Below, piece after piece: positions 1-48,533 of a DNA stretch of 64,000 nt. The DNA comes from a virus, in the IMG/VR virus record IMGVR_UViG_3300034112_000721, positions 48,532 to 112,531 of that record. One strand, written 5' to 3'. The notes below the pieces were generated by a model that was given only the letters and a program-made list of their open reading frames with translations, was not told the origin of the DNA and ran no database searches. The translations under genes and the position numbers were made by a program. The stretch's first letter is position 1; each line of letters opens with the position of its first letter.

Positions 1-2125
1 CAATGTTCATAACCCATTGCTTATATTTAGCATCAGCATCAGGATCTTTTAATTCCATTTTATCTCCATCTATGTAAATTATTTTGTTTTTTTCTTCATA
101 TGGATCTTTTTTTGATTTGAGATCAATTTCTTTTGCGTCTTGAACAAAATCACGTACAGCAAGATTTACCTCTCCAGGTTTAGTTTTAGGTGCACTAGCT
201 AATTTTTCAACTGCAGCAAGACTTTTTGGTTTTGCTGTTGCTCTAGCAGCACTAACATTACTAGAAGGTTTAGATTTATTTTCTGATTCAGAGATTGCCT
301 TAGTAATATAATTAGCCATATTACCAAGACCACCAGCAGCACCACTAGCAATTAATCTTGAAAGCTCAGCAGCTTTTTCTTTTTCTTGAAGTTGTTTTAT
401 TGGATTACCTCCTTTATCCATTCTAGTTAATGAAGGTATAGAAATGTCTTCTATTATATATCCACCTTTTCTGTATTCTTCTATTTGATTATCATCAAGT
501 TCAAGTTCAATATAACTAGGTGCTCCAATCATATTTCTTAAAAAACTCTGTGCATCAGAATCTGCAATTGAAGGATTTTCAGTTGCTATATTTCTACCAT
601 AAACATTTGTAATTGGCCTATAACCAATTTTTCTATCTTCATCTACAGCATGCTGAAATGTTTCATGTGCAGGTGATTTTAAATATTCTCCTGTATTTTG
701 ATTAATACTATATGCATGATAATAACCATCACTCTCTTTGGGTTGATCATAATTAAATTTTTCTGGTCTTCCCTCAGAATCCCAATAACCCCTTATATCA
801 TATGTAGCATCATCTGTTTGAAGATTTTCAGGAAGTGTAGCATAAAATTTTTGAAATTCTATTTCTTCTTCTGGTGACAGTTTAGTAATACCACCATTTT
901 GTTTCCTTATAAGATTACCTATAGAATGTCCATAGCTTGCTTCTGGTAATTCTACACCATCTTTAAATATTTGTCCTGCACTTCCTAATTTATTAATAAC
1001 AGATTGTTTATTATCTATATGTCTATTTATTCCCAGTTCTTTTATTTTAGCTATCTTAGCTTTATCTGATCCTGTTGCAAATATTCTATCTTCAGATATT
1101 CCCGCAGCTCTTGCTCTTTCTATCATATCTGGTGTTACTTCAGCTCTAGCAGATATTATATATTTTTCATTAGGCATGGATTGAGCCATTTGTAAACCTC
1201 TATCTGTGCTAAGTGTATCATCAAAGTCAAATGAAATTATTTCACCTCCTATTTTTTTATATTTTAACTTTTTAAGATTTTCTAAAATGCTTTCTATTCT
1301 TTGTTCTTCTTGTCTCGCCTCTCCTTCTATTGTAGATGGATTCATATACATTCTTTCCTGTGCTAAATTTAGTATTTTCTCTTCTGGCATATCAGGATTT
1401 TCTTGCATAATTTGATCAAAAGCTTGATCAAATTCAACACCTCTTCTATCATAATAAGCACCTATTGCTTCATCTGATGCAACATATGGATTAGGCCTAA
1501 GACCTACTGAACCGTATGTACTCATTTTACCATCCATATTTTGTTTATCATGAAAAAGTTCATGCGCCAACCACCAAGGATTATTTATATTTTCTATTGG
1601 ACTATTTGGATTATATGTTATAGTTCTAAATGCAGAATTATAACCTAATTGATGTTCAGGATTATTAGGATCATAATTTTTTATTGGAACATATGTTATA
1701 CCACCATCTTGAAAATATGGAGAATTAGGATCAAAGATTTTATTCTTTACAGATTTTGATTTTTTAAATAACGGGTTTTTTGTAAATAATATATTCCTAG
1801 CCATTAAGCTTTTGGAATATTTTTTAGGATACTTTTTACTACCACCTTTCTTAGCTTGTGGTATTTCATAAACCATGTCTCCTTCAAACTGATACTCATT
1901 ACCTGGAGTCATGTATTGTGCATTACCTAAATTATCTATACCCAATAAGTCATCTTCTACTCCTTTCATGGTTATCTTTCCAGTAGGTGTAGGTACTGCA
2001 GTAGGAAGACCTGGGTAATCCCATTGCCCTCTTTCAGAAACAATAAATCCTTGAGTAAATCTTTTTAACTCATTTGGACCACCGGGTAAACCAGCTTTTT
2101 CATATTTCTTAAAAGACTTCTTCAT
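1..2125 (-). CDS. Large multi-domain putative virion cargo/ejected protein, truncated at the window edge; contains zincin-like (HELFH) and HAD-like (DFDDTL) domains separated by xxGG motifs
   Basis: Absent from the ORF track because it has no stop in the window. Hand translation from ATG 2125 (TAATG overlap with the upstream stop) gives MKKSFKKYEKAGLPGGP...WWLAHELFHDKQ...ISFDFDDTLS...IISAR...HIDNK...KQWVMNI, in frame to position 2. It follows the tail muzzle gene, as crAss-like cargo genes do. Confidence 0.75.
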   Translation of the reverse strand, partial: MKKSFKKYEKAGLPGGPNELKRFTQGFIVSERGQWDYPGLPTAVPTPTGKITMKGVEDDLLGIDNLGNAQYMTPGNEYQFEGDMVYEIPQAKKGGSKKYPKKYSKSLMARNILFTKNPLFKKSKSVKNKIFDPNSPYFQDGGITYVPIKNYDPNNPEHQLGYNSAFRTITYNPNSPIENINNPWWLAHELFHDKQNMDGKMSTYGSVGLRPNPYVASDEAIGAYYDRRGVEFDQAFDQIMQENPDMPEEKILNLAQERMYMNPSTIEGEARQEEQRIESILENLKKLKYKKIGGEIISFDFDDTLSTDRGLQMAQSMPNEKYIISARAEVTPDMIERARAAGISEDRIFATGSDKAKIAKIKELGINRHIDNKQSVINKLGSAGQIFKDGVELPEASYGHSIGNLIRKQNGGITKLSPEEEIEFQKFYATLPENLQTDDATYDIRGYWDSEGRPEKFNYDQPKESDGYYHAYSINQNTGEYLKSPAHETFQHAVDEDRKIGYRPITNVYGRNIATENPSIADSDAQSFLRNMIGAPSYIELELDDNQIEEYRKGGYIIEDISIPSLTRMDKGGNPIKQLQEKEKAAELSRLIASGAAGGLGNMANYITKAISESENKSKPSSNVSAARATAKPKSLAAVEKLASAPKTKPGEVNLAVRDFVQDAKEIDLKSKKDPYEEKNKIIYIDGDKMELKDPDADAKYKQWVMNI

Positions 2126-5100
2126 TATCTTATTGACATTTCATTTTTACTATTTACAACTTTTAATATAAAGTTGATATCTCTTTCTTGTTCTGTAGCA
2201 AGTTTAGATAAAAATAAATAATTTAAGTAATGTCTAAACTTCTTTCTTTGAGTATCTAACTTAGCATAATTTAAGTTTGCATTATTCAAAGTTTTAATAT
2301 AACCATTTGGTTCTGTATTCCAAATAAATTGTTCAGAATAATTACCAAGAAGTTGTGTAGTTCCAGGAACAAGAGGTCCTGTTGGAGGGTAATCTGACCC
2401 AATTGGAAATTCTCCTCTATCTTTTGTAATATCCCAATACTGATTAAACCTATACTTATTTTCTTCTTTTGAAAATAATATATCAAATGAAGATAAGTTG
2501 GATTGATTTAATTTAGGATATTGTAATGAAAGAGTAATATTATTTTTTGGGAATATGTTTAAATTAAGATATCCAGATACTTGCTCTGTGTTAGATATAA
2601 CTGCTTGACTAAAGTTTGCATCAAGAACATGAAACTGATCTACACAGTTAAATTGTGAATATCTATAACACTCTAAGGTATATTCTATTGATCTTACAAT
2701 ACTTGGAGCAGATCCTGTATTTATTGGATACTCTATTTCAAAAGGATATTGTGTACCATAAAAATTACAGAAGTCATCACATACATCATTATGTCTCCAG
2801 ATTGTATTACCTTTTACAGTAAACAATGTTTCTTTAGATGAAAATACAAGATCTGGATGCCAATCATGATAACTAATAAATACTTGTAATTTAGGGTCAT
2901 AACTTACAGTCCATGATGCATCAACAAAAACATTTGGGTGCCCTAATGGATAATTTACTCCAAGATAATTAAACTTATTTGTTTCTGGATTATAAGATAC
3001 TTTACCTATATCCTTTCTTAACTGATAATCTTTCTTAGTAAAGTATAGTATAGATGATCTTGTATCATATCCTGCTTGAACACCAATACCAGCTACTGGA
3101 TTATCTTGATGTGGATAATCTGGAAAATCTTCTGTTAGCTTATATGGTAAAAATAAAGAAAACCACCACTTCAATCCATTTTGTGAAATTTCTTTTATAC
3201 CCTCACCATATGCAAAAAGTTTACCCTGATTCATTGATGCATAATATAATCCAGCTGGTGAGTATATTACAGATCTTATATTTTGAGATGAACCATATTC
3301 AAATGGTGCATCAGCATTTACTGCAGACTGTGGAGGATTACTAAATAAACCACCATCTCCAATAGTTACTTTTTTACCAGATAAAGTCTGTAATGTATCT
3401 ATACCTTGATAGAACAAAGGTCCTGTAGTTGGGAATGTAAAGATCATACCTGTCATACCAACAGGTTTTACCGTAGTAATTTTATCATTAAACTGTACAT
3501 AGTTTAATGGTAAATAGATCAACCAATTATTATCATAGGATTGATCATCTTGGTACAATGAGTATAACGCTCTATTTGGATAATATGTAAAACATAATTC
3601 TGCAACTTGAGGATCATAATTTGCACCTTGTGTTGATCCGGCAGAAAGATACTGTGTAAAAAACTTAGTAACACTTAATGAATAATCATAGTTATAAAAG
3701 TTACCCTTAGTAATTACTTCTGGATTCATATCAAACAGCTGTCTTAAATCTGTATATTGATATGGTATATATGGTTGTTGTGATTGTAAAGTTCCTTGTG
3801 ATCTAAAGTCTACAAGTACATTACTCTCTACAAAGAAATCTCTTACACCAGAATTAGCTAAATACATGTATGAATCCTTAACAGATAAAAATCCTGGATA
3901 GTTTCCTTCCGTATCATTTTGTCTATCATAATTATCATTATCTAAATTATAATATCCTTTTGGCATTGGACCAGTACCAAATGTTGGCTGAGGAGTTAGT
4001 AAAGATATTATATCTGCAATTGTTGTTGCAATATTACCACCAGCAGCAATTGGATTTTCATCTTTACTGTATGGTGCAGTATTCATCCAATACCTTGCTG
4101 TAGGTATATTATTATATAATGCATAGTTCCATATAGTTCCATCAGGTAAATTATATAACCAGTTGTAAAAGAAAAGCATTGTGTTCTTTTCTGTAAATCT
4201 GTTTATATAAGTATCTCCTCCAAATATAATTTCTGATGTTGGAAGAACTTTATGAAATACTTGTCCATTCAACGGGCAGTTGCCAGATGTTGGTTGAGAA
4301 ATTATATTATTAGGATCAAATTTTTGTTCACACGTTGTTGCAACAACTTGTTTAATACTATCAATTCTACCATATTGATTTTGTACATTATATTTTAATC
4401 CAACATAATGACTTGCTATATTTCCTAAAAATTGTTTAAATAATGATTCATTTTTAAAACTCATATCAAAGCTTGGAACATCAGTTGCTTTACCAAGATT
4501 AATTAATGAGTTATCTTCTTGAAAACCAATTTGCTGTGTTGATCCAACATATGTACCAACTAACTGCGGTCCTATTGTTGGAGCAATGGTAGGTGATGTG
4601 TATGTTGTATTTGGAGCAGAAGTTCTAATAAAGACTGTCTTAGGTCTAGAAAGATTATTTATTGTAAATCTTTGAAAATTACCAAATCCATTTAAATAAT
4701 CTGGAACCTCTTGATTTCTATCACTAAGATAGAACCCGTTTTCAATTTTAAATCTTTTTAAGAAATTAGTATTAGGTGCAACAAATCTTGCATAGAATCC
4801 ATGTGCTAATGATTGTAAAGCATATTGTCTAAATGGTAAAAATGCTTGAATAATTCTTAGTGTTGTATTGAACCCCTCAGTAAAATAATATGGTAACTGC
4901 ACACCAATATTTATTGCGCTTGTTGCAAAAACACCAAGCCCTAAATTATTTAAAACAGTTGCTGTATTATAATCTGTTATAAGTGTTGTTGGTGGATATA
5001 GTCCAATATTTGCATATGATTGTGCCGTTGTTTCAAAAATCTCTTCAAGCGTTAAAGATGCCGGATTACCAGGTCCAGTAATTGCACCAGAAATTTGTTG

Positions 5101-7578
5101 AGAGGCACTATTAAAATAGTTATTAAGTTGTGTATAAAAGTTAAATGCATTACTTGCAGCAGCATTTACTGTAAATGAATCAAGATCTCCTGGTGGTGGA
5201 TTTGGTGGTGTTAAGTTATTACCATTACCACCTGCAATATTCCAATAATCATATTTTTGATAAGGGACTTGAAAATCTGGAAGAGCTGGTGATGATATCT
5301 GTTTCTTACCCAATAAGTTTAATAAAGCATTTCCAAGACCAGCTATAATTGCAATATAAACCGCAGCATTACTCATCAACTGATTTTCAGGATGCTTATC
5401 TGGTATTACAAAAGAATGTACTGAGTTACCTTCTAAACTTCCATAGATTTTTAATTCAGTTTGGTTTATAAAAGGATTTCTAAAGCTAGTATCTGGAGAT
5501 GTAAATGTAAGAAGGTTTTTTGGTATACCTTGATTTACAAATGTTTCATTTCCATCTTTATCTATAGTGGTTGTTTTAATAAAAGGATCATTATAATAAT
5601 AATCATGATCTCCAATATTTGCAGTATTATCTAATGGTATTGAACAGTTAAATGGATAGTTTGCATATAGTCCTGTTCTATTACCTTTTGATTGCCCCTG
5701 TATAGGATAAGTCCTAAAGTTATTAATCATCCCTTTAGCAACTATACTAAGATTACCTTCTCTTGAACCTCTTAGTATTTCATATCCAACTATATTAGGA
5801 ATATCATTACCGTCATTATCTTTTGGGTAGATTATATTATTAAACTCTACACCCATTATTCTAATAAACTTTTTACCATCAGAAGCATTAGCATTTTCTA
5901 CTCTAAAGTGATATGTATCAGGTGTTAATGCATTATCTGGAAACTTGTGATGTCTAATAGGTTTACCACAAAGATCATATCTTGGATCTTTAGTAGCTGT
6001 CCAACACTGTGAACTTGAATTCCATATGTTAGGTTGGTTATCAGGATATATTTCTGTAGATTGCCAGTATCCCATTTTACCTTTAGCTAATACAACTCCT
6101 CCATCAGGTAATACTGGATAGTTAGGAAAGTATGTATCTGTCTGCCAAGCTGTATTTACAGTTTCAAATAATAATGTGTTATCTACAAAACTATTCTTAT
6201 CTGTATATGTATCAGCATCTTTTGTATTTGCAGGAACATTATCTGGATTTGGTGTTGGATAGTTTTCTTCTGGTCTTCCAGGAATGTGATAAGATGCAGA
6301 TTTATCTCCAGTATTGTATACCCATCTTATAAAGAAAGCATATACCTCATCTCTAAGATAACCTACTTTAGATCCTCCAGTAATATAATAGTCTTCAGGA
6401 TATTCAACTGACACCCATTTAGTATTTATCAAATTAGCAAGTGGCTGATAATTAAAATCAAATTTAGATGTGGGAGCAATTCTAAGTAAGTACTGTCCAA
6501 CATTAACTATCTGATCTGATTTCTCATATACTGGATTTAATAATGGTATAGCTGATGTTGGTATAGTTATTAATGTCTGTGGTATATCATCTAATAAGAT
6601 TGATGTTTCAGAAGTAGAATAATAACCAATCTGTTTTGCTTGAACATTTTCATTAATTGATCTAACTATTACTAATTCAAACTGCTCAAAGTTTTCAGTG
6701 TCTAAATCTAATGTTAATAGTAATGATCCTTGTGAAACATCATTAGGATTATATACTGGTTGAAGATTACTTGGAGAAAAATAATTAGTTACATTCTGAC
6801 CCTTAATAGAATATGCTACAACGGCAAAGTAAGTTCCATTTTCTAATGTACCTGTACCAGGTGCAATTGAAAGTTGAACGCATGGTGTCTGTACTAATGA
6901 TGCCAATCTTATTTTGTCACAATCTAAAAAGTTTAAATCTGTACATATTTTACAATCTCCAGGAGTACATTTTTGTTCCCATGCAGTAATTGGCCATAAT
7001 ACAGTTCCACTTGATGAAATATATCTATTATAATTTATACCTGCTGTAGCTTGATTAGAGCCACCCCATTGAAAAGATGAATCTGGCCATGTCTTTGGAT
7101 CACCAATATTTAAATATCTATCAGGATTTAAACCATCTGCCCAATACACTTCCCACTTACAATCTCCCTTTTGTCTAGAAGCTCCGGTAATTAAATTATA
7201 TGGACTAAAATTTAAACATGGTGCAGAAACAATTGGTCTATACAAACAATGTTCTTCTTCATATAAACCAATTTCAGAATTAACAGGTTTACCATTTACA
7301 GTAGCAACAGTAAATATAATCCACTTATCCGCATATAAATGTATAATACCAATAATAGCTTTATCACCCTGCATGGTCTCTCCACTTGTTCCGCAGAGAT
7401 AGTTTGAGTCCTCATTAGATAAAGTACCTAGGTTACCCTCATCAGTATTATTGACCATGTTTCTTGCATGTGTCCATAGTCCAGATGTTACAAATGATGG
7501 GTCTGTATCTTTATTTAGACCTTTAGAGAAACTATTTGTAATATTCTGAGTAGTATTTTGAAGACCTTTTTTAGCCAT
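2125..7578 (-). CDS. Tail muzzle / stabilization protein (crAss-like)
   Basis: 1817 aa; N-terminal FSKGLNKD..P...W..ARN pattern, internal YLRDEVYAFFIRW and WTVSYDP...FISYHDWHP; lies downstream of ring proteins. Confidence 0.8.
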   Translation of the reverse strand: MAKKGLQNTTQNITNSFSKGLNKDTDPSFVTSGLWTHARNMVNNTDEGNLGTLSNEDSNYLCGTSGETMQGDKAIIGIIHLYADKWIIFTVATVNGKPVNSEIGLYEEEHCLYRPIVSAPCLNFSPYNLITGASRQKGDCKWEVYWADGLNPDRYLNIGDPKTWPDSSFQWGGSNQATAGINYNRYISSSGTVLWPITAWEQKCTPGDCKICTDLNFLDCDKIRLASLVQTPCVQLSIAPGTGTLENGTYFAVVAYSIKGQNVTNYFSPSNLQPVYNPNDVSQGSLLLTLDLDTENFEQFELVIVRSINENVQAKQIGYYSTSETSILLDDIPQTLITIPTSAIPLLNPVYEKSDQIVNVGQYLLRIAPTSKFDFNYQPLANLINTKWVSVEYPEDYYITGGSKVGYLRDEVYAFFIRWVYNTGDKSASYHIPGRPEENYPTPNPDNVPANTKDADTYTDKNSFVDNTLLFETVNTAWQTDTYFPNYPVLPDGGVVLAKGKMGYWQSTEIYPDNQPNIWNSSSQCWTATKDPRYDLCGKPIRHHKFPDNALTPDTYHFRVENANASDGKKFIRIMGVEFNNIIYPKDNDGNDIPNIVGYEILRGSREGNLSIVAKGMINNFRTYPIQGQSKGNRTGLYANYPFNCSIPLDNTANIGDHDYYYNDPFIKTTTIDKDGNETFVNQGIPKNLLTFTSPDTSFRNPFINQTELKIYGSLEGNSVHSFVIPDKHPENQLMSNAAVYIAIIAGLGNALLNLLGKKQISSPALPDFQVPYQKYDYWNIAGGNGNNLTPPNPPPGDLDSFTVNAAASNAFNFYTQLNNYFNSASQQISGAITGPGNPASLTLEEIFETTAQSYANIGLYPPTTLITDYNTATVLNNLGLGVFATSAINIGVQLPYYFTEGFNTTLRIIQAFLPFRQYALQSLAHGFYARFVAPNTNFLKRFKIENGFYLSDRNQEVPDYLNGFGNFQRFTINNLSRPKTVFIRTSAPNTTYTSPTIAPTIGPQLVGTYVGSTQQIGFQEDNSLINLGKATDVPSFDMSFKNESLFKQFLGNIASHYVGLKYNVQNQYGRIDSIKQVVATTCEQKFDPNNIISQPTSGNCPLNGQVFHKVLPTSEIIFGGDTYINRFTEKNTMLFFYNWLYNLPDGTIWNYALYNNIPTARYWMNTAPYSKDENPIAAGGNIATTIADIISLLTPQPTFGTGPMPKGYYNLDNDNYDRQNDTEGNYPGFLSVKDSYMYLANSGVRDFFVESNVLVDFRSQGTLQSQQPYIPYQYTDLRQLFDMNPEVITKGNFYNYDYSLSVTKFFTQYLSAGSTQGANYDPQVAELCFTYYPNRALYSLYQDDQSYDNNWLIYLPLNYVQFNDKITTVKPVGMTGMIFTFPTTGPLFYQGIDTLQTLSGKKVTIGDGGLFSNPPQSAVNADAPFEYGSSQNIRSVIYSPAGLYYASMNQGKLFAYGEGIKEISQNGLKWWFSLFLPYKLTEDFPDYPHQDNPVAGIGVQAGYDTRSSILYFTKKDYQLRKDIGKVSYNPETNKFNYLGVNYPLGHPNVFVDASWTVSYDPKLQVFISYHDWHPDLVFSSKETLFTVKGNTIWRHNDVCDDFCNFYGTQYPFEIEYPINTGSAPSIVRSIEYTLECYRYSQFNCVDQFHVLDANFSQAVISNTEQVSGYLNLNIFPKNNITLSLQYPKLNQSNLSSFDILFSKEENKYRFNQYWDITKDRGEFPIGSDYPPTGPLVPGTTQLLGNYSEQFIWNTEPNGYIKTLNNANLNYAKLDTQRKKFRHYLNYLFLSKLATEQERDINFILKVVNSKNEMSIR

Positions 7579-42809: not shown

Positions 42810-43415
42810 TTAGATATCTGTAGATTCTAGCAAAGTATAAGAAAACTTATTGCCATGTATCTTAGCTGCCCTTTTACATATGGACATAAACTCATTAAAG
42901 TCTTTTACTCTTTTAAACACTTGACATCCCTCACTCCAATTCTCTACCCATGTGCTGTCAGTACCTGCTTTGTGAATATTAATTCCAAATATGCCGGTAT
43001 CTTTTACCTTTTCATCAAACACTAAATCTTTATTAGCATCTCTCCATACAGTAACATTACCTAGTCTCTGGCATAATGCATCATATTTGCCCTGGTGTTT
43101 ATCAACCATCCATGTTGATCTATACTGCCCAGGTACTAGTCTTGCTACACCCTTGGCATTGTGGAATTGTTGTACTCCCTTTTTGCCCGGGTCAGTAGTT
43201 GCATTCCAGCAGAAAAAGTTCCAGTTACCTAAGCTATCCTTAAATGTAATGGTAATACAATCATCAAATACATTGGTTACTTTTCTATAAACTGCTGGAG
43301 AATTATTGCGGACACCCACAACATTAACATCATACCCTTTATTAGCAGCATCTTCAAACCACTTATAACCTTTAGCTTTTACAGCACGTTCTATTTGCTC
43401 TCTAGTATAACACAT
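42810..43415 (-). CDS. Putative peptidoglycan-active enzyme, YkuD/L,D-transpeptidase-like
   Basis: GINIH...WSEGCQ resembles the H..S.GC catalytic motif. Confidence 0.5.
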   Translation of the reverse strand: MCYTREQIERAVKAKGYKWFEDAANKGYDVNVVGVRNNSPAVYRKVTNVFDDCITITFKDSLGNWNFFCWNATTDPGKKGVQQFHNAKGVARLVPGQYRSTWMVDKHQGKYDALCQRLGNVTVWRDANKDLVFDEKVKDTGIFGINIHKAGTDSTWVENWSEGCQVFKRVKDFNEFMSICKRAAKIHGNKFSYTLLESTDI

Positions 43416-43438
43416 ATCCTTTTACTTTAATATACAAA

Positions 43439-43570
43439 TTATTTCCGGATACTAGTCTTACTATAAGCATCACACTTTTGAGTAGACTTACATCCCGTCA
43501 TAAGATACCCTATAGCCAAACCTATGCATATACCAAATACACATAAGCAAAATACTTTCCATTTTTCCAT
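43439..43570 (-). CDS. Small lipoprotein, 43 aa
   Basis: Hand translation MEKWKVFCLCVFGICIGLAIGYLMTGCKSTQKCDAYSKTSIRK; promoter motif upstream. Confidence 0.65.
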   Translation of the reverse strand: MEKWKVFCLCVFGICIGLAIGYLMTGCKSTQKCDAYSKTSIRK

Positions 43571-43879
43571 ACAACAAATATAATAAAATAACAAAGGCCC
43601 GGGCTTTCAACTCCAGACCTTTGTACCAGTATTAACCAAATAATATAGCATGACAAATATACAACTGTATTTTAATATTCCAAACCGGTGGTAAAAATAT
43701 TTTGTTTTAGAGATTGTTAGGGACCCCTAGTAGCCAGACCCCCCCACCTGCCGCGCTTGGTGCTACCCCCTACTTCTTTCTACTAGACATGTTGAATTGT
43801 AGAATAATTTGTAAATGTTTTACAGCTGGAAGTTTCTGGTACTTCTTTCTACAGATGTTGAATCATTAAAATTTTTATC

Positions 43880-44110
43880 ATGAAAAAGTTACTTGTTACT
43901 GTTATGTTCTTTGCTGTTTTGTTTGGTGTACCAATGATGTTTTATTGGGTAGTGTTCTATATATTATATATGGGCTTTGCGGTAGATATTGTTATTAGCT
44001 TCTTGATATCTCTTATGGGTAGTGTGACCATGTTTCTTGGACTTGTTAAGGTTGCTGAGAAGTTAGTTAATAAGGGTTTGGATATATACATTATTGATAT
44101 GAGAAGATAA
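43880..44110 (+). CDS. Small two-TM early membrane protein
   Basis: ORF track; promoter motif upstream and hairpin downstream. Confidence 0.65.
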   Translation: MKKLLVTVMFFAVLFGVPMMFYWVVFYILYMGFAVDIVISFLISLMGSVTMFLGLVKVAEKLVNKGLDIYIIDMRR

Positions 44111-44152
44111 GGGCTTTGCCCTTTCTTCTTGTACTTCTTCTTACTTGTTTAG

Positions 44153-44255
44153 AATATAACAAGGAATGTTTCCTGGGGGAGCAAGGCCAGCCGTGGCTAC
44201 TGCTTAATATACCTACGAGAGGAAGTCCTACGGAAACACTTGTTATATTTTTTTT
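44153..44255 (+). ncRNA. Candidate structured ncRNA 1
   Basis: AATATAACAAG/CTTGTTATATT and TGTTTCC/GGAAACA stems enclose two GC-rich hairpins; ends in a T-run; no ORF. Confidence 0.6.
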
Positions 44256-44297
44256 ATACTTCTTCTTACTTGTGTTAAACTATTAAAATTATTTATT

Positions 44298-44447
44298 ATG
44301 AAAGATTTTGTTAACTATTTGATTGCTGTTGTATCTATGGGTTGTATAACAGGTTTACTTGTTTCTATGGGATCTCAGATCTTATTAGCTATGGGAATTA
44401 TGTCTTTATTTTGGGCAGGTATGTTTGCGCCAATGTTAAGGGGATAA
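44298..44447 (+). CDS. Small hydrophobic protein, 49 aa
   Basis: Hand translation MKDFVNYLIAVVSMGCITGLLVSMGSQILLAMGIMSLFWAGMFAPMLRG; sits in a promoter/terminator cassette. Confidence 0.65.
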   Translation: MKDFVNYLIAVVSMGCITGLLVSMGSQILLAMGIMSLFWAGMFAPMLRG

Positions 44448-44499
44448 TTCCCCTTTTATACTTCTTTGTACTTATTAAGAACCAATAAAATTTTATGCT

Positions 44500-44574
44500 A
44501 TGGGAACTGTAACTTATGTTATTATCAATGGAGTTTTAACTGTTAAGTCTTGGGTAAAGAACCCCAATGCTTAA
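44500..44574 (+). CDS. 24-aa micropeptide MGTVTYVIINGVLTVKSWVKNPNA
   Basis: Only sizeable ORF between promoter motif 44459 and the terminator at 44586. Confidence 0.5.
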   Translation: MGTVTYVIINGVLTVKSWVKNPNA

Positions 44575-44585
44575 TGGTTTAAGTT

Positions 44586-44612
44586 AAGGGAGAGCAATCT
44601 CCCTTTTCTTTT
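44586..44612 (+). terminator. Intrinsic terminator
   Basis: AAGGGAGA-GCAA-TCTCCCTT followed by TTCTTTT. Confidence 0.8.
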
Positions 44613-44654
44613 GTACTTATTTATACATATTAGAAACCAATAAATTATTTACTT

Positions 44655-44822
44655 ATGGAAGAGACCAGATTAGTTATGACTTGGGAAGAATACAAGTTAC
44701 TATTAGATGTATTAAACCATGTATATCACCAGACAGATTACAAACCAATAAATGATTTGTATGTCAAGTTATACATGCAGATGAATGCGCGTAAAGTAGA
44801 AGATATAGAGTTACCCTTTTAA
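44655..44822 (+). CDS. Small early protein, 55 aa
   Basis: Hand translation MEETRLVMTWEEYKLLLDVLNHVY...VEDIELPF; sits in a cassette. Confidence 0.65.
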   Translation: MEETRLVMTWEEYKLLLDVLNHVYHQTDYKPINDLYVKLYMQMNARKVEDIELPF

Positions 44823-44846
44823 TAGGGTAATTCTTTCTACTTATTT

Positions 44847-44996
44847 AATAAAAGTTAGCCAAGGAATGTAAAGTGTTTTACCGGTGGAGAAAGTAGACTT
44901 TGGTGCTGATAATCAAGCACTTACAAAAAGCAAGTTTTTACACAAATTAATACCGCACAAAGCCTTGCTTATTTTGTCCTTCGGACAGCTTTTATT
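44847..44996 (+). ncRNA. Candidate structured ncRNA 2
   Basis: AATAAAAGTT/AGCTTTTATT ends pair; CAAGG/CCTTG; UUCG hairpin; shares CAAGGAATGT with ncRNA 1; no convincing ORF. Confidence 0.45.
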
Positions 44997-45044
44997 ATAC
45001 TTCTTTTTACTGTTTTAGATTATTAACCTTTTAATTTATTTATT

Positions 45045-45380
45045 ATGTCTAAAATTAATTTTAGTGAAACAAAGTCCTTGGTTGAATTCTTTGGTCAAAT
45101 ATCTGCTACTGATTTGCAGATTTGTCAAAGTAAAAGAACAGGTGGGTTATATGTAGTATTCAAATGTGCTGATGGTACAGAACAGAATGCTATGTTGGCA
45201 AAGTCTATATCTAATATAGATGCTAACAATGCTGCTGATTTGCAAGTATCTTGGATAGAAGGTACTACAGAAACAGGTAACCCATTGGAAGGTTTTATGA
45301 TTCATCCAACAGGTGAGCGTAAAGTTGTATCCAACTTTAGCCTTGCAGACCTTACTGCAAAGGTTGGTGCTATTGGTTAA
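45045..45380 (+). CDS. Hypothetical early protein
   Basis: ORF track; promoter motif upstream and terminator downstream. Confidence 0.7.
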   Translation: MSKINFSETKSLVEFFGQISATDLQICQSKRTGGLYVVFKCADGTEQNAMLAKSISNIDANNAADLQVSWIEGTTETGNPLEGFMIHPTGERKVVSNFSLADLTAKVGAIG

Positions 45381-45391
45381 TAGTACAACAA

Positions 45392-45425
45392 GAGATAGTG
45401 TCAGAAATGACACTATCTTTTTTTT
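45392..45425 (+). terminator. Intrinsic terminator
   Basis: AGATAGTGTCA-GAAA-TGACACTATCT followed by a T-run. Confidence 0.85.
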
Positions 45426-45716
45426 ATATTGCCTTCGGCAGCTTTTGTTTTACTTCTTTCTACTTAGTGTGGTAGGATATGTGTAGAGACAAGAACCTGT
45501 TATATGTATAATTTTTTTTATTTGGCTGTTACTAACCCAAGTTACTGTCAAAATATCTCTTACGCGCGTGTATGTTTGTTTAAATAAGTGATAGTATCTT
45601 GTTTATAGTAAACCTATTACACTATTCTCTACCACTAATAACTCTCTATATTCTATATATAATACTTTAGTATTATAACAAGATTTTATATAGCTAACCC
45701 TTTAATCTTATTACCT

Positions 45717-45944
45717 ATGCTTAGAACTACTTACTTCCTAATAGGAATGTTATTCTCTTCCTTAGTATATGCTCTATTACTCTCTATAGAAGAAACACAG
45801 AGAGAGCTTCCGGTTAAAGGTATAGACCGGGAATATTATTTAGAAGTTACCGGTGATAGTATCTTCTTAGAATCTAGACAAGGACAAATCTACCGTGGTA
45901 AGTACTCAGACTTAGACAGTCTTATTAATGTAGATAACTTGTAA
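45717..45944 (+). CDS. Hypothetical membrane-anchored protein
   Basis: N-terminal hydrophobic helix. Confidence 0.55.
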   Translation: MLRTTYFLIGMLFSSLVYALLLSIEETQRELPVKGIDREYYLEVTGDSIFLESRQGQIYRGKYSDLDSLINVDNL

Positions 45945-46059
45945 CAACTATGAACCACAGTATGAGTATTCTCTACTAACACATCTAGCGGACTGTGGTT
46001 TCCCGTTAAACTAATTACCTCTATATATATTTTATTAACCCGTTTAAATTTTATTTACT

Positions 46060-46722: not shown

Positions 46723-46796
46723 AGTCCCATAGCTCAACTGGATAGAGCAACACACTTCTAATGTGTAGGTTACAGGTTCGACTCCTGTTGGGACTA
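46723..46796 (+). tRNA. tRNA-Arg (anticodon TCT)
   Basis: AGTCCCA/TGGGACT acceptor, GCTC/GAGC D-stem, ACACA-CTTCTAA-TGTGT anticodon arm, ACAGG-TTCGACT-CCTGT T-arm; CCA not encoded. Confidence 0.95.
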
Positions 46797-46820
46797 CTTC
46801 TATTCACTAAAATTAATTAC

Positions 46821-48514: not shown

Positions 48515-48533
48515 ATTATTATGATTTATTAAT

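Follow-up and report, generated by a model that had tools for sequence, protein, structure and literature searches.

Which enzyme starts transcription of the tiny genes that lie one behind the other at the turning point of a freshwater phage genome, and which signal does it read? The stretch analysed here (the window) comprises 64,000 nucleotides (nt), positions 48,532 to 112,531 of the complete IMG/VR virus record IMGVR_UViG_3300034112_000721, which is 112,531 bp long and has a 127-bp overlap between its ends; positions are those of the window unless marked as genome positions. The phage is crAss-like, as portal, major capsid protein and terminase match crAss PHROG families, with a TerL only about 25% identical to that of known Crassvirales. 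Within 1.7 kb of the window a 14-nt motif, TACTTCTTyyTACT, occurs at nine sites on the plus strand, in front of open reading frames (ORFs) for micro-proteins and of non-coding RNAs. We regard these motifs as putative promoters that are read by the phage's own virion RNA polymerase (vRNAP), or by this polymerase jointly with a partner whose gene lies in the same block, and we put the probability of this reading at roughly 0.68. A sequence-only reading of the DNA had proposed compact promoters for such an enzyme, and the comparison of related phages lends support to the proposal: the motif type switches with the vRNAP and its gene block, independently of the rest of the genome.

All nine sites of the sequence-only reading are present with the sequences it quoted, and all nine point the same way. 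The first two form a tandem pair, 43771..43784 (TACTTCTTTCTACT; weight-matrix score 22.3) and 43840..43853 (20.8), the latter 26 nt before the ATG of a 76-aa ORF. They are followed by sites at 44132..44145 (20.2), 44257..44270 (20.2), 44459..44472 (20.5), 44614..44627 (TACTTATTTATACA, the weakest copy, 14.4 and, in a leave-one-out test, 8.1), 44828..44841 (TAATTCTTTCTACT; 18.6), 44998..45011 (20.9) and, as the last copy, 45451..45464 (22.3). The position weight matrix was made from the nine sites and scanned over the whole 112,531-bp genome: eight array sites score at least 18.6, and the best score outside the array, 15.1, belongs to an antisense sequence within a coding region. The genome-wide scan thus places all strong copies in the 1.7 kb to which the motif had been said to be confined. 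Matches to TACTTCTTYYTAC with at most one mismatch number 11 in the window, eight of them inside the array, versus 0.88 ± 0.90 in 100 dinucleotide-preserving shuffles. Four units have 26-27 nt between the 3′ end of the motif and the ATG, a fifth has 33 nt, and relatives have about 18-33 nt; since this spacing varies, it behaves as a 5′ untranslated region (UTR) and not as a fixed translational element. The array occupies the exact switch point from leftward genes (virion, lysis) to rightward genes; it heads the latter, directly 3′ of a GC-rich landmark (43717..43770, plus strand), an island of about 45 bp with several C-runs and the ends GGTGCTACCCCC / GGTnnTACCCCCC, which stands in an AT-rich genome, borders directly on motif site 1 and marks where the array begins.

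One set of relatives, L001-L006, was obtained via a lysin-like gene (42810-43415) as anchor; these loci carry the same motif, differ in the number and kind of units, and their unit insertions, deletions and replacements are bounded by hairpin/motif junctions. Other homologues of the lysin-like gene, at 80-88%, stand in unrelated contexts, including contigs of about 290 kb, and are not accompanied by a repeated motif. Helicase-anchored relatives (70-97% identity) share a common layout, in which the landmark is followed by terminator, motif, short leader and ATG or RNA, with a motif that is specific to the lineage. A counterpart of the landmark (CCCC..N..TACCCCC) lies directly upstream of the array in 18 of the 18 related genomes examined, and the search pattern has a single match in most whole genomes scanned (more than one in G004, G006 and G009). 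Among 18 genomes we distinguish nine motif types, each genome being uniform in its type. Type A, TACTTCTTyyTACT, is that of G000, G005, L094 and L109; type B, (G/T)A(C/A)CTGTGTnTTACTA, of G001 and G002; type C, AACATCTTwTTACT, of G003 and L128 (16 copies); type D, ATACAGCTTTnnACTA, of G004, G013, G017 and G018; type E, TTAATCTTTAATAA, of G008; type F, with an (A/G)CCCTTrA core, of G006, G007, G010, G019 and G020; type G, CmCCGCTTTTAACT, of G009; type H, AACAGCTCATAACC / TTCAGCTC.., of L140 and G014; and type J, ACCATTTTwwAACT, of G016. Further variants were seen in L157 (ATACAACTCATTACT) and L097 (ATCACCTTGTnTTACTA). A 3′ (T/A)ACT is common to many types, which diverge in the 8-10 nt that precede it. 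Copies of the genome's own motif are found at most about 3.2 kb 3′ of the landmark, and on the same strand, in 8 of 12, 11 of 15, 11 of 12, 12 of 13, 9 of 9, 7 of 7 and 5 of 7 cases in seven typed genomes; in G008 one copy is found farther out, 4.4 kb from the landmark.

The same payloads, namely a structured RNA (RNA A, unit 2 of the array, 44146..44256), a 49-aa ORF (unit 3, 44298..44447) and the family of a 111-aa protein (unit 7, 45045..45380), stand behind different motif types, and the motif therefore belongs to the genome and not to the payload. A lineage-specific motif in front of the same payloads in turn points to a trans-acting specificity factor that is encoded in the same genome.

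The only recognised polymerase in the genome is a homologue of the crAss-type two-barrel enzymes, a vRNAP of 4143 aa with DFDxD at residue 2494, encoded on the minus strand outside the window (genome 14695-27126; L162:696-13127). Its residues 2100-3000 match g066 of Cellulophaga phage phi14:2 ('catalytic RNA polymerase subunit'; E = 3e-10, tblastn) and proteins of other crAss phages, and the 4143-aa protein as a whole has no PHROG or PDB sequence match. The genome has no match to a T7-type RNA polymerase (PF00940), a search that was also empty in 14 control genomes. The vRNAP gene belongs to a block at genome 11.3-56.1 kb (in the window up to 7578) with eight giant virion genes in uninterrupted succession, of which the minus-strand gene of a 1817-aa virion protein (2125..7578) is the only complete one inside the window. 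Block proteins share only 27-60% identity in phages that agree to about 85-97% in capsid, terminase and most replication proteins; the block is thus hypervariable and acts like a module that can be exchanged. Between G000 and the type-B genome G001, most replication proteins are 85-97% identical, the terminase 93%, the capsid 96% and the portal 82%, versus 27-60% (mostly partial alignments) for the block genes, 35-41% for the vRNAP and about 28% for its 2870-aa neighbour. Between G000 and G005, both of type A, terminase (95%), capsid and portal (99% each) are again similar, the replication proteins not being on the contig, and here the block genes reach 75-96%, the vRNAP 94% and the 2870-aa neighbour 87-89%.

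In a Mantel test of motif similarity versus protein identity over 11 genomes, the vRNAP gave r = 0.61 (p = 0.0002), the 2870-aa neighbour r = 0.50 (p = 0.0004) and the 1817-aa protein r = 0.31 (p = 0.02); capsid (r = 0.08), portal (r = 0.17) and terminase (r = -0.05) were all non-significant. Seven further genomes were typed by their motif first, and types D and F then fell with the vRNAP groups D (44-64% identity) and F (41-78%). Between different types the median vRNAP identity is 33%, and related motifs pair with related polymerases (B-D 42-57%, A-C 42%, H-J 56%). Polymerase and motif of type F occur together in G006 and in G019, backbones with a helicase identity to G000 of 94% and 62%, respectively, and the motif type is not in step with capsid, portal, terminase or helicase identity. 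Taken together, the identities of block and backbone, the Mantel test and the further typing indicate that array and polymerase block, tens of kb apart, change together and that the intervening genes do not. No other part of these genomes diverges as fast as the polymerase block, and its joint change with a cis-element far away speaks for a strong functional coupling.

We assume that, after entry of the genome, the vRNAP would begin at the 3′ TACT of each motif or immediately behind it and would yield one short monocistronic RNA per motif, either the mRNA of a micro-protein with an AT-rich leader of 20-33 nt or a structured non-coding RNA. It would then halt at a GC hairpin and T-run directly before the next motif. 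By analogy with the promoter families of T7, T3 and SP6, specificity would reside in the variable 5′ part of 8-10 nt, and the common 3′ (T/A)ACT would have its role in initiation. Repeats of the motif, with the sequence beside them, probably provide in addition short stretches of homology at which entire units are swapped. We infer initiation at the motif, early timing and the contacting protein, and for start site and timing we rely on the position beside the landmark, on the likeness to the early end of phi14:2 with its tiny ORFs and non-coding RNAs, and on the geometry of RNA A. The closing stem of this RNA follows the motif at a constant 7-8 nt and homology between lineages begins exactly at this stem, which places the 5′ end of the RNA near the motif. 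RNA A is found behind four well-defined motif variants; the case of a fifth locus, L322, is less clear.

The sequence-only reading had described nine cassettes of hairpin and motif, with a directly abutting upstream hairpin at seven sites, and had pointed to the hairpin promoters of phage N4. A hairpin with T-run does precede seven of the sites, in six cases a simple one and before 44257 the closing stem of the RNA unit. The region 43400-46000 contains 10 terminator-like hairpins versus 1.4 ± 1.3 in shuffles; they are GC-rich stem-loops with a T-run, situated right behind a stop codon or where an RNA unit ends, and most units are closed in this way. On the plus strand they lie at 44109..44123 (unit 1), 44438..44455 (unit 3), 44586..44605 (unit 4), 44807..44834 (unit 5, with a 3′ arm that overlaps the motif at 44828), 44974..44988 (unit 6, CTTCGG loop) and, as two successive hairpins, 45390..45441 (unit 7). 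Their stems (5-14 bp) and loops (3-7 nt) are unrelated in sequence, their distance to the motif ranges from an overlap of 3-7 nt at 44828 up to 10 nt, and the sites 43771 and 43840 have none. The hairpins fit putative intrinsic terminators of the preceding unit, and the idea of an N4-like hairpin promoter has to be given up: the fixed geometry, fixed distance and conserved bases of such promoters are absent from the hairpins of the array.

The array contains five micro-ORFs (24-111 aa) and three ORF-less units (RNA A, 44842-44995 and 45465-45519). That each site precedes one tiny unit, as had been claimed, holds broadly, with the qualification that three units lack an ORF and that the tandem sites 43771 and 43840 serve a single ORF. 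Likewise, the notion of swappable single-gene cassettes is right in that whole units distinguish close relatives and the breakpoints coincide with hairpin/motif junctions, and wrong for the three ORF-less units, which are probably non-coding RNAs and not genes. All units are on the plus strand. Unit 1 (43880..44110) is the 76-aa hydrophobic micro-ORF, without family match, of which relatives keep the 5′ UTR and the first codons and replace the body. Unit 2, RNA A, stands behind site 44132, and unit 3, the likewise hydrophobic 49-aa micro-ORF, behind site 44257; a G001 ORF 85% identical to the latter follows a type-B motif. Unit 4 (44500..44574, behind site 44459) is a 24-aa micro-ORF conserved in relatives, and unit 5 (44655..44822, behind site 44614) a 55-aa ORF with an acidic C-terminus. 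The 111-aa protein of unit 7, behind site 44998, is the most conserved member of the array; as a single search query it retrieved only near-identical loci, members of its family stand behind types A, C, D and H, and type-C genomes (L128, L146) have it as two tandem paralogues with a motif each. A Pfam/PHROG search with the four larger ORFs (76, 49, 55 and 111 aa) gave no match. Unit 8 (45465..45519, behind site 45451), a short ORF-less stretch with a T8 end and no significant fold, may represent either a short RNA or a leader for the genes 3′ of it.

RNA A folds with a minimum free energy of -37.3 kcal/mol (z = -4.3) into about 100 nt with a three-way junction, and its 13-bp closing stem followed by U8 represents its own terminator. 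Three compensatory pairs among 3 sequences were found; the RNA is conserved in at least four phage lineages and had no match in Rfam. RNA B (unit 6, 44842..44995, behind site 44828) has a UUCG hairpin at its end and the 10-mer CAAGGAATGT in common with RNA A; the fold by itself lacks significance (z = -0.95). The core of RNA B, GGTGGAGnAAGTAGACTTTGGTnCTGATAATCA, is conserved in five lineages and has the motif in front only in the present one. TROVE/Ro60, a possible partner for the array RNAs, was not found in the genome. In crAss001 (L327, region 95965-96869), four copies of TTACTTCAA lie in a long intergenic gap beside the TROVE gene; these repeats may be an RNA locus.

Several observations weigh against the assignment of the motifs to the vRNAP. 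The vRNAP identities overlap (41-94% within a type versus 22-57% between types), the 2870-aa neighbour tracks the motif almost as well as the polymerase does, and by co-variation the vRNAP cannot be told apart from the block's other giant proteins. A small number of same-type pairs carries much of the Mantel result, and the consensus motifs of the small arrays of G006, G007, G009 and G010 were picked by eye. RNA B homologues in G001, G002, G004 and G008 lack the lineage motif upstream, so some units are expressed in another way. Tail-fibre and lysin genes also vary between the phages, which makes host differences between lineages possible. For the early transcripts of phi14:2, the only crAss-like phage in which they have been mapped, the authors detected no shared upstream motif (bioRxiv 10.1101/2020.03.07.982082). 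Neither the left end of phi14:2 nor the right (early) end of crAss001 carries a comparable repeated motif or terminator-bounded array, and the arrangement may be restricted to this environmental clade.

Of the other explanations, a signal at the level of RNA survives best, and even this we consider unlikely. One or a few long RNAs would start near the GC landmark, and the motif would be the cleavage or binding site of a phage RNA-processing protein, possibly packaged in the virion, with the upstream hairpins protecting the new 3′ ends. Such a protein would equally explain why a lineage-specific motif tracks a phage gene block; the RNA B homologues without motif imply read-through or processing somewhere, and the universal landmark could hold the only true start. 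The excess of hairpins with T-runs, two of them in succession at unit 7, argues for termination and not for read-through, however, and the first motif adjoins the landmark, which leaves nothing upstream to process. No nuclease-like protein was identified in the co-varying block, which was not searched in depth, and the sole recognisable enzyme of the block is an RNA polymerase.

That the motif is an unusual promoter of the host RNA polymerase appears less probable again. It would be used by a primary or alternative sigma factor, possibly with a small phage appropriator, and the motif types would mirror different hosts, as the variation of tail-fibre and lysin genes might suggest. In phi14:2, genes of the middle and late classes do use the host enzyme with a phage-specific extended motif, and a weak A/T-rich element 5-8 nt 3′ of the motif (TTAGAA, TTGAAT) has some likeness to a -10 box. 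However, the motif is unlike the Bacteroidota consensus (-33 TTTG and -7 TAnnTTTG, about 19 nt apart), which fits none of the nine sites; genome-wide the consensus has 9 matches versus 5 ± 2 in shuffles. A perfect copy, TTTG-N19-TAtaTTTG, is located 90 nt away on the opposite strand (43654..43684, minus), in the same intergenic region, and points leftward, away from the array. It faces the leftward operon of small ORFs and lysin and hints at a Bacteroidota host and at transcription of this operon by the host polymerase. Sigma-70-like sites (TTGACA-N16-18-TATAAT) are not enriched in 43400-46000, with 9 weak matches versus 11.8 ± 3.1 in shuffled sequence, none aligned with the motifs, and the two sigma-70 domain models tested had no match in the genome. 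Host promoters would also hardly differ so completely between phages that are 85-97% identical in most replication, terminase and capsid proteins, nor does the similarity of the motifs track any backbone gene.

Slightly more doubtful still is the interpretation as operator sites, according to which the motif would bind a phage regulator that switches off or boosts all early units together and would overlap a poorly conserved promoter. A repeated 14-mer that is uniform in the genome and specific to the lineage does look like the operator of a regulon. Against this, the 0-10 nt between T-run and motif leave no room for a separate promoter, the motif lacks dyad symmetry, and the co-varying genes encode giant virion proteins only, with no small DNA-binding protein among them. 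An integron-like array, in which hairpin and core motif would form attC-type sites for the capture of cassettes, is very improbable even though whole units are gained, lost or replaced among close relatives with breakpoints at the hairpin/motif junction, as the complete genome has no match to a tyrosine recombinase (PF00589) such as IntI, the short GC stems with T-runs share no sequence and are unlike attC, the motif co-varies with the polymerase and not with a recombinase, and homologous recombination across the repeated motif region of 25-40 bp suffices for exchange.

Promoters for the vRNAP, as favoured here, can be compared with several known systems. The vRNAP of phage N4 is a T7-like single-subunit enzyme, and it recognises promoter hairpins at a fixed position, with conserved bases, a stem of 5-7 bp and a loop of 3 nt. 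Common to N4 and the present phage would be a virion-packaged polymerase that transcribes a few early genes from phage-specific signals without the host enzyme. The present polymerase is of the crAss-type two-barrel kind, though, the conserved element is a linear 14-mer, and the hairpins are variable and absent at two sites. Phages T7, T3, SP6 and K11 have short linear promoters, repeated in each genome, with a variable specificity segment, which changes along with the polymerase, beside a shared initiation segment, and close relatives have naturally orthogonal pairs of polymerase and promoter; their polymerases are made after infection and are not packaged. The variable 8-10 nt and the shared 3′ (T/A)ACT of our motifs, and the candidate pairs among close relatives, resemble this arrangement, whereas the polymerase fold is unrelated and no sequence similarity exists.

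A precedent for promoters of a virion-delivered two-barrel polymerase is Thermus phage P23-45. Its gp96 is a two-barrel virion RNA polymerase with AT-rich pre-early promoters; a strongly conserved motif lies upstream of many small pre-early genes and is present only in those relatives that carry the polymerase (bioRxiv 10.1101/2022.12.01.518664). In contrast to the present case, the polymerase of P23-45 is fused to a tape-measure protein and unrelated in sequence, the motif is unrelated as well, and neither an array of mini-units separated by terminators nor a set of motif types has been described there. Phage phi14:2 has a homologous polymerase and a similar early region, with tiny ORFs and abundant early non-coding RNAs; its gp66, the crAss-like vRNAP that has been characterised, was assayed on denatured or single-stranded DNA (bioRxiv 10.1101/2020.03.07.982082). 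The phi14:2 left end differs in the features of the array named above. By analogy, the array would work like the phage-polymerase promoters of the T7 family or of P23-45, and its likeness to N4 would be confined to the virion-borne polymerase.

We found no promoter defined for a crAss-type polymerase in the literature searched. The array supplies concrete candidates, and the way in which its motif changes only with the vRNAP makes it the first good promoter candidate in this family of polymerases. The clade may even hold, as a natural library, nine or more orthogonal pairs that each consist of a two-barrel vRNAP and a 14-nt promoter, a possibility to which we give even chances. In that case these would be the first defined promoters for a crAss-type polymerase, and block and promoter set, tens of kb apart, would be inherited as a matched pair and replaced in otherwise near-identical genomes, a specificity switch for the very first step of infection. 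The driver may be competition between co-infecting relatives, or host defences or decoys directed against early transcription. As candidate promoters, natural specificity variants and cognate polymerases are all at hand, promoter recognition is directly testable by an in vitro cross-test, and, if the coupling holds, the pairs would be usable as compact orthogonal transcription parts.

The array region had no DNA match in an annotated phage collection. The GC landmark in front of it may be the physical genome end, a packaging site, an entry site of the polymerase or a sequence that forms a G-quadruplex or i-motif. Shortly 3′ of the array, at 46723-46797, the phage has a tRNA-Arg(TCT) gene, and a tRNA-Arg is likewise found in the early end of crAss001. 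A shared TTATTTTTAGTATAT-like element (window 9890 and 17053, genome 45689; minus strand) lies upstream of three leftward genes of the giant or late kind and may tentatively be taken as a second promoter class.

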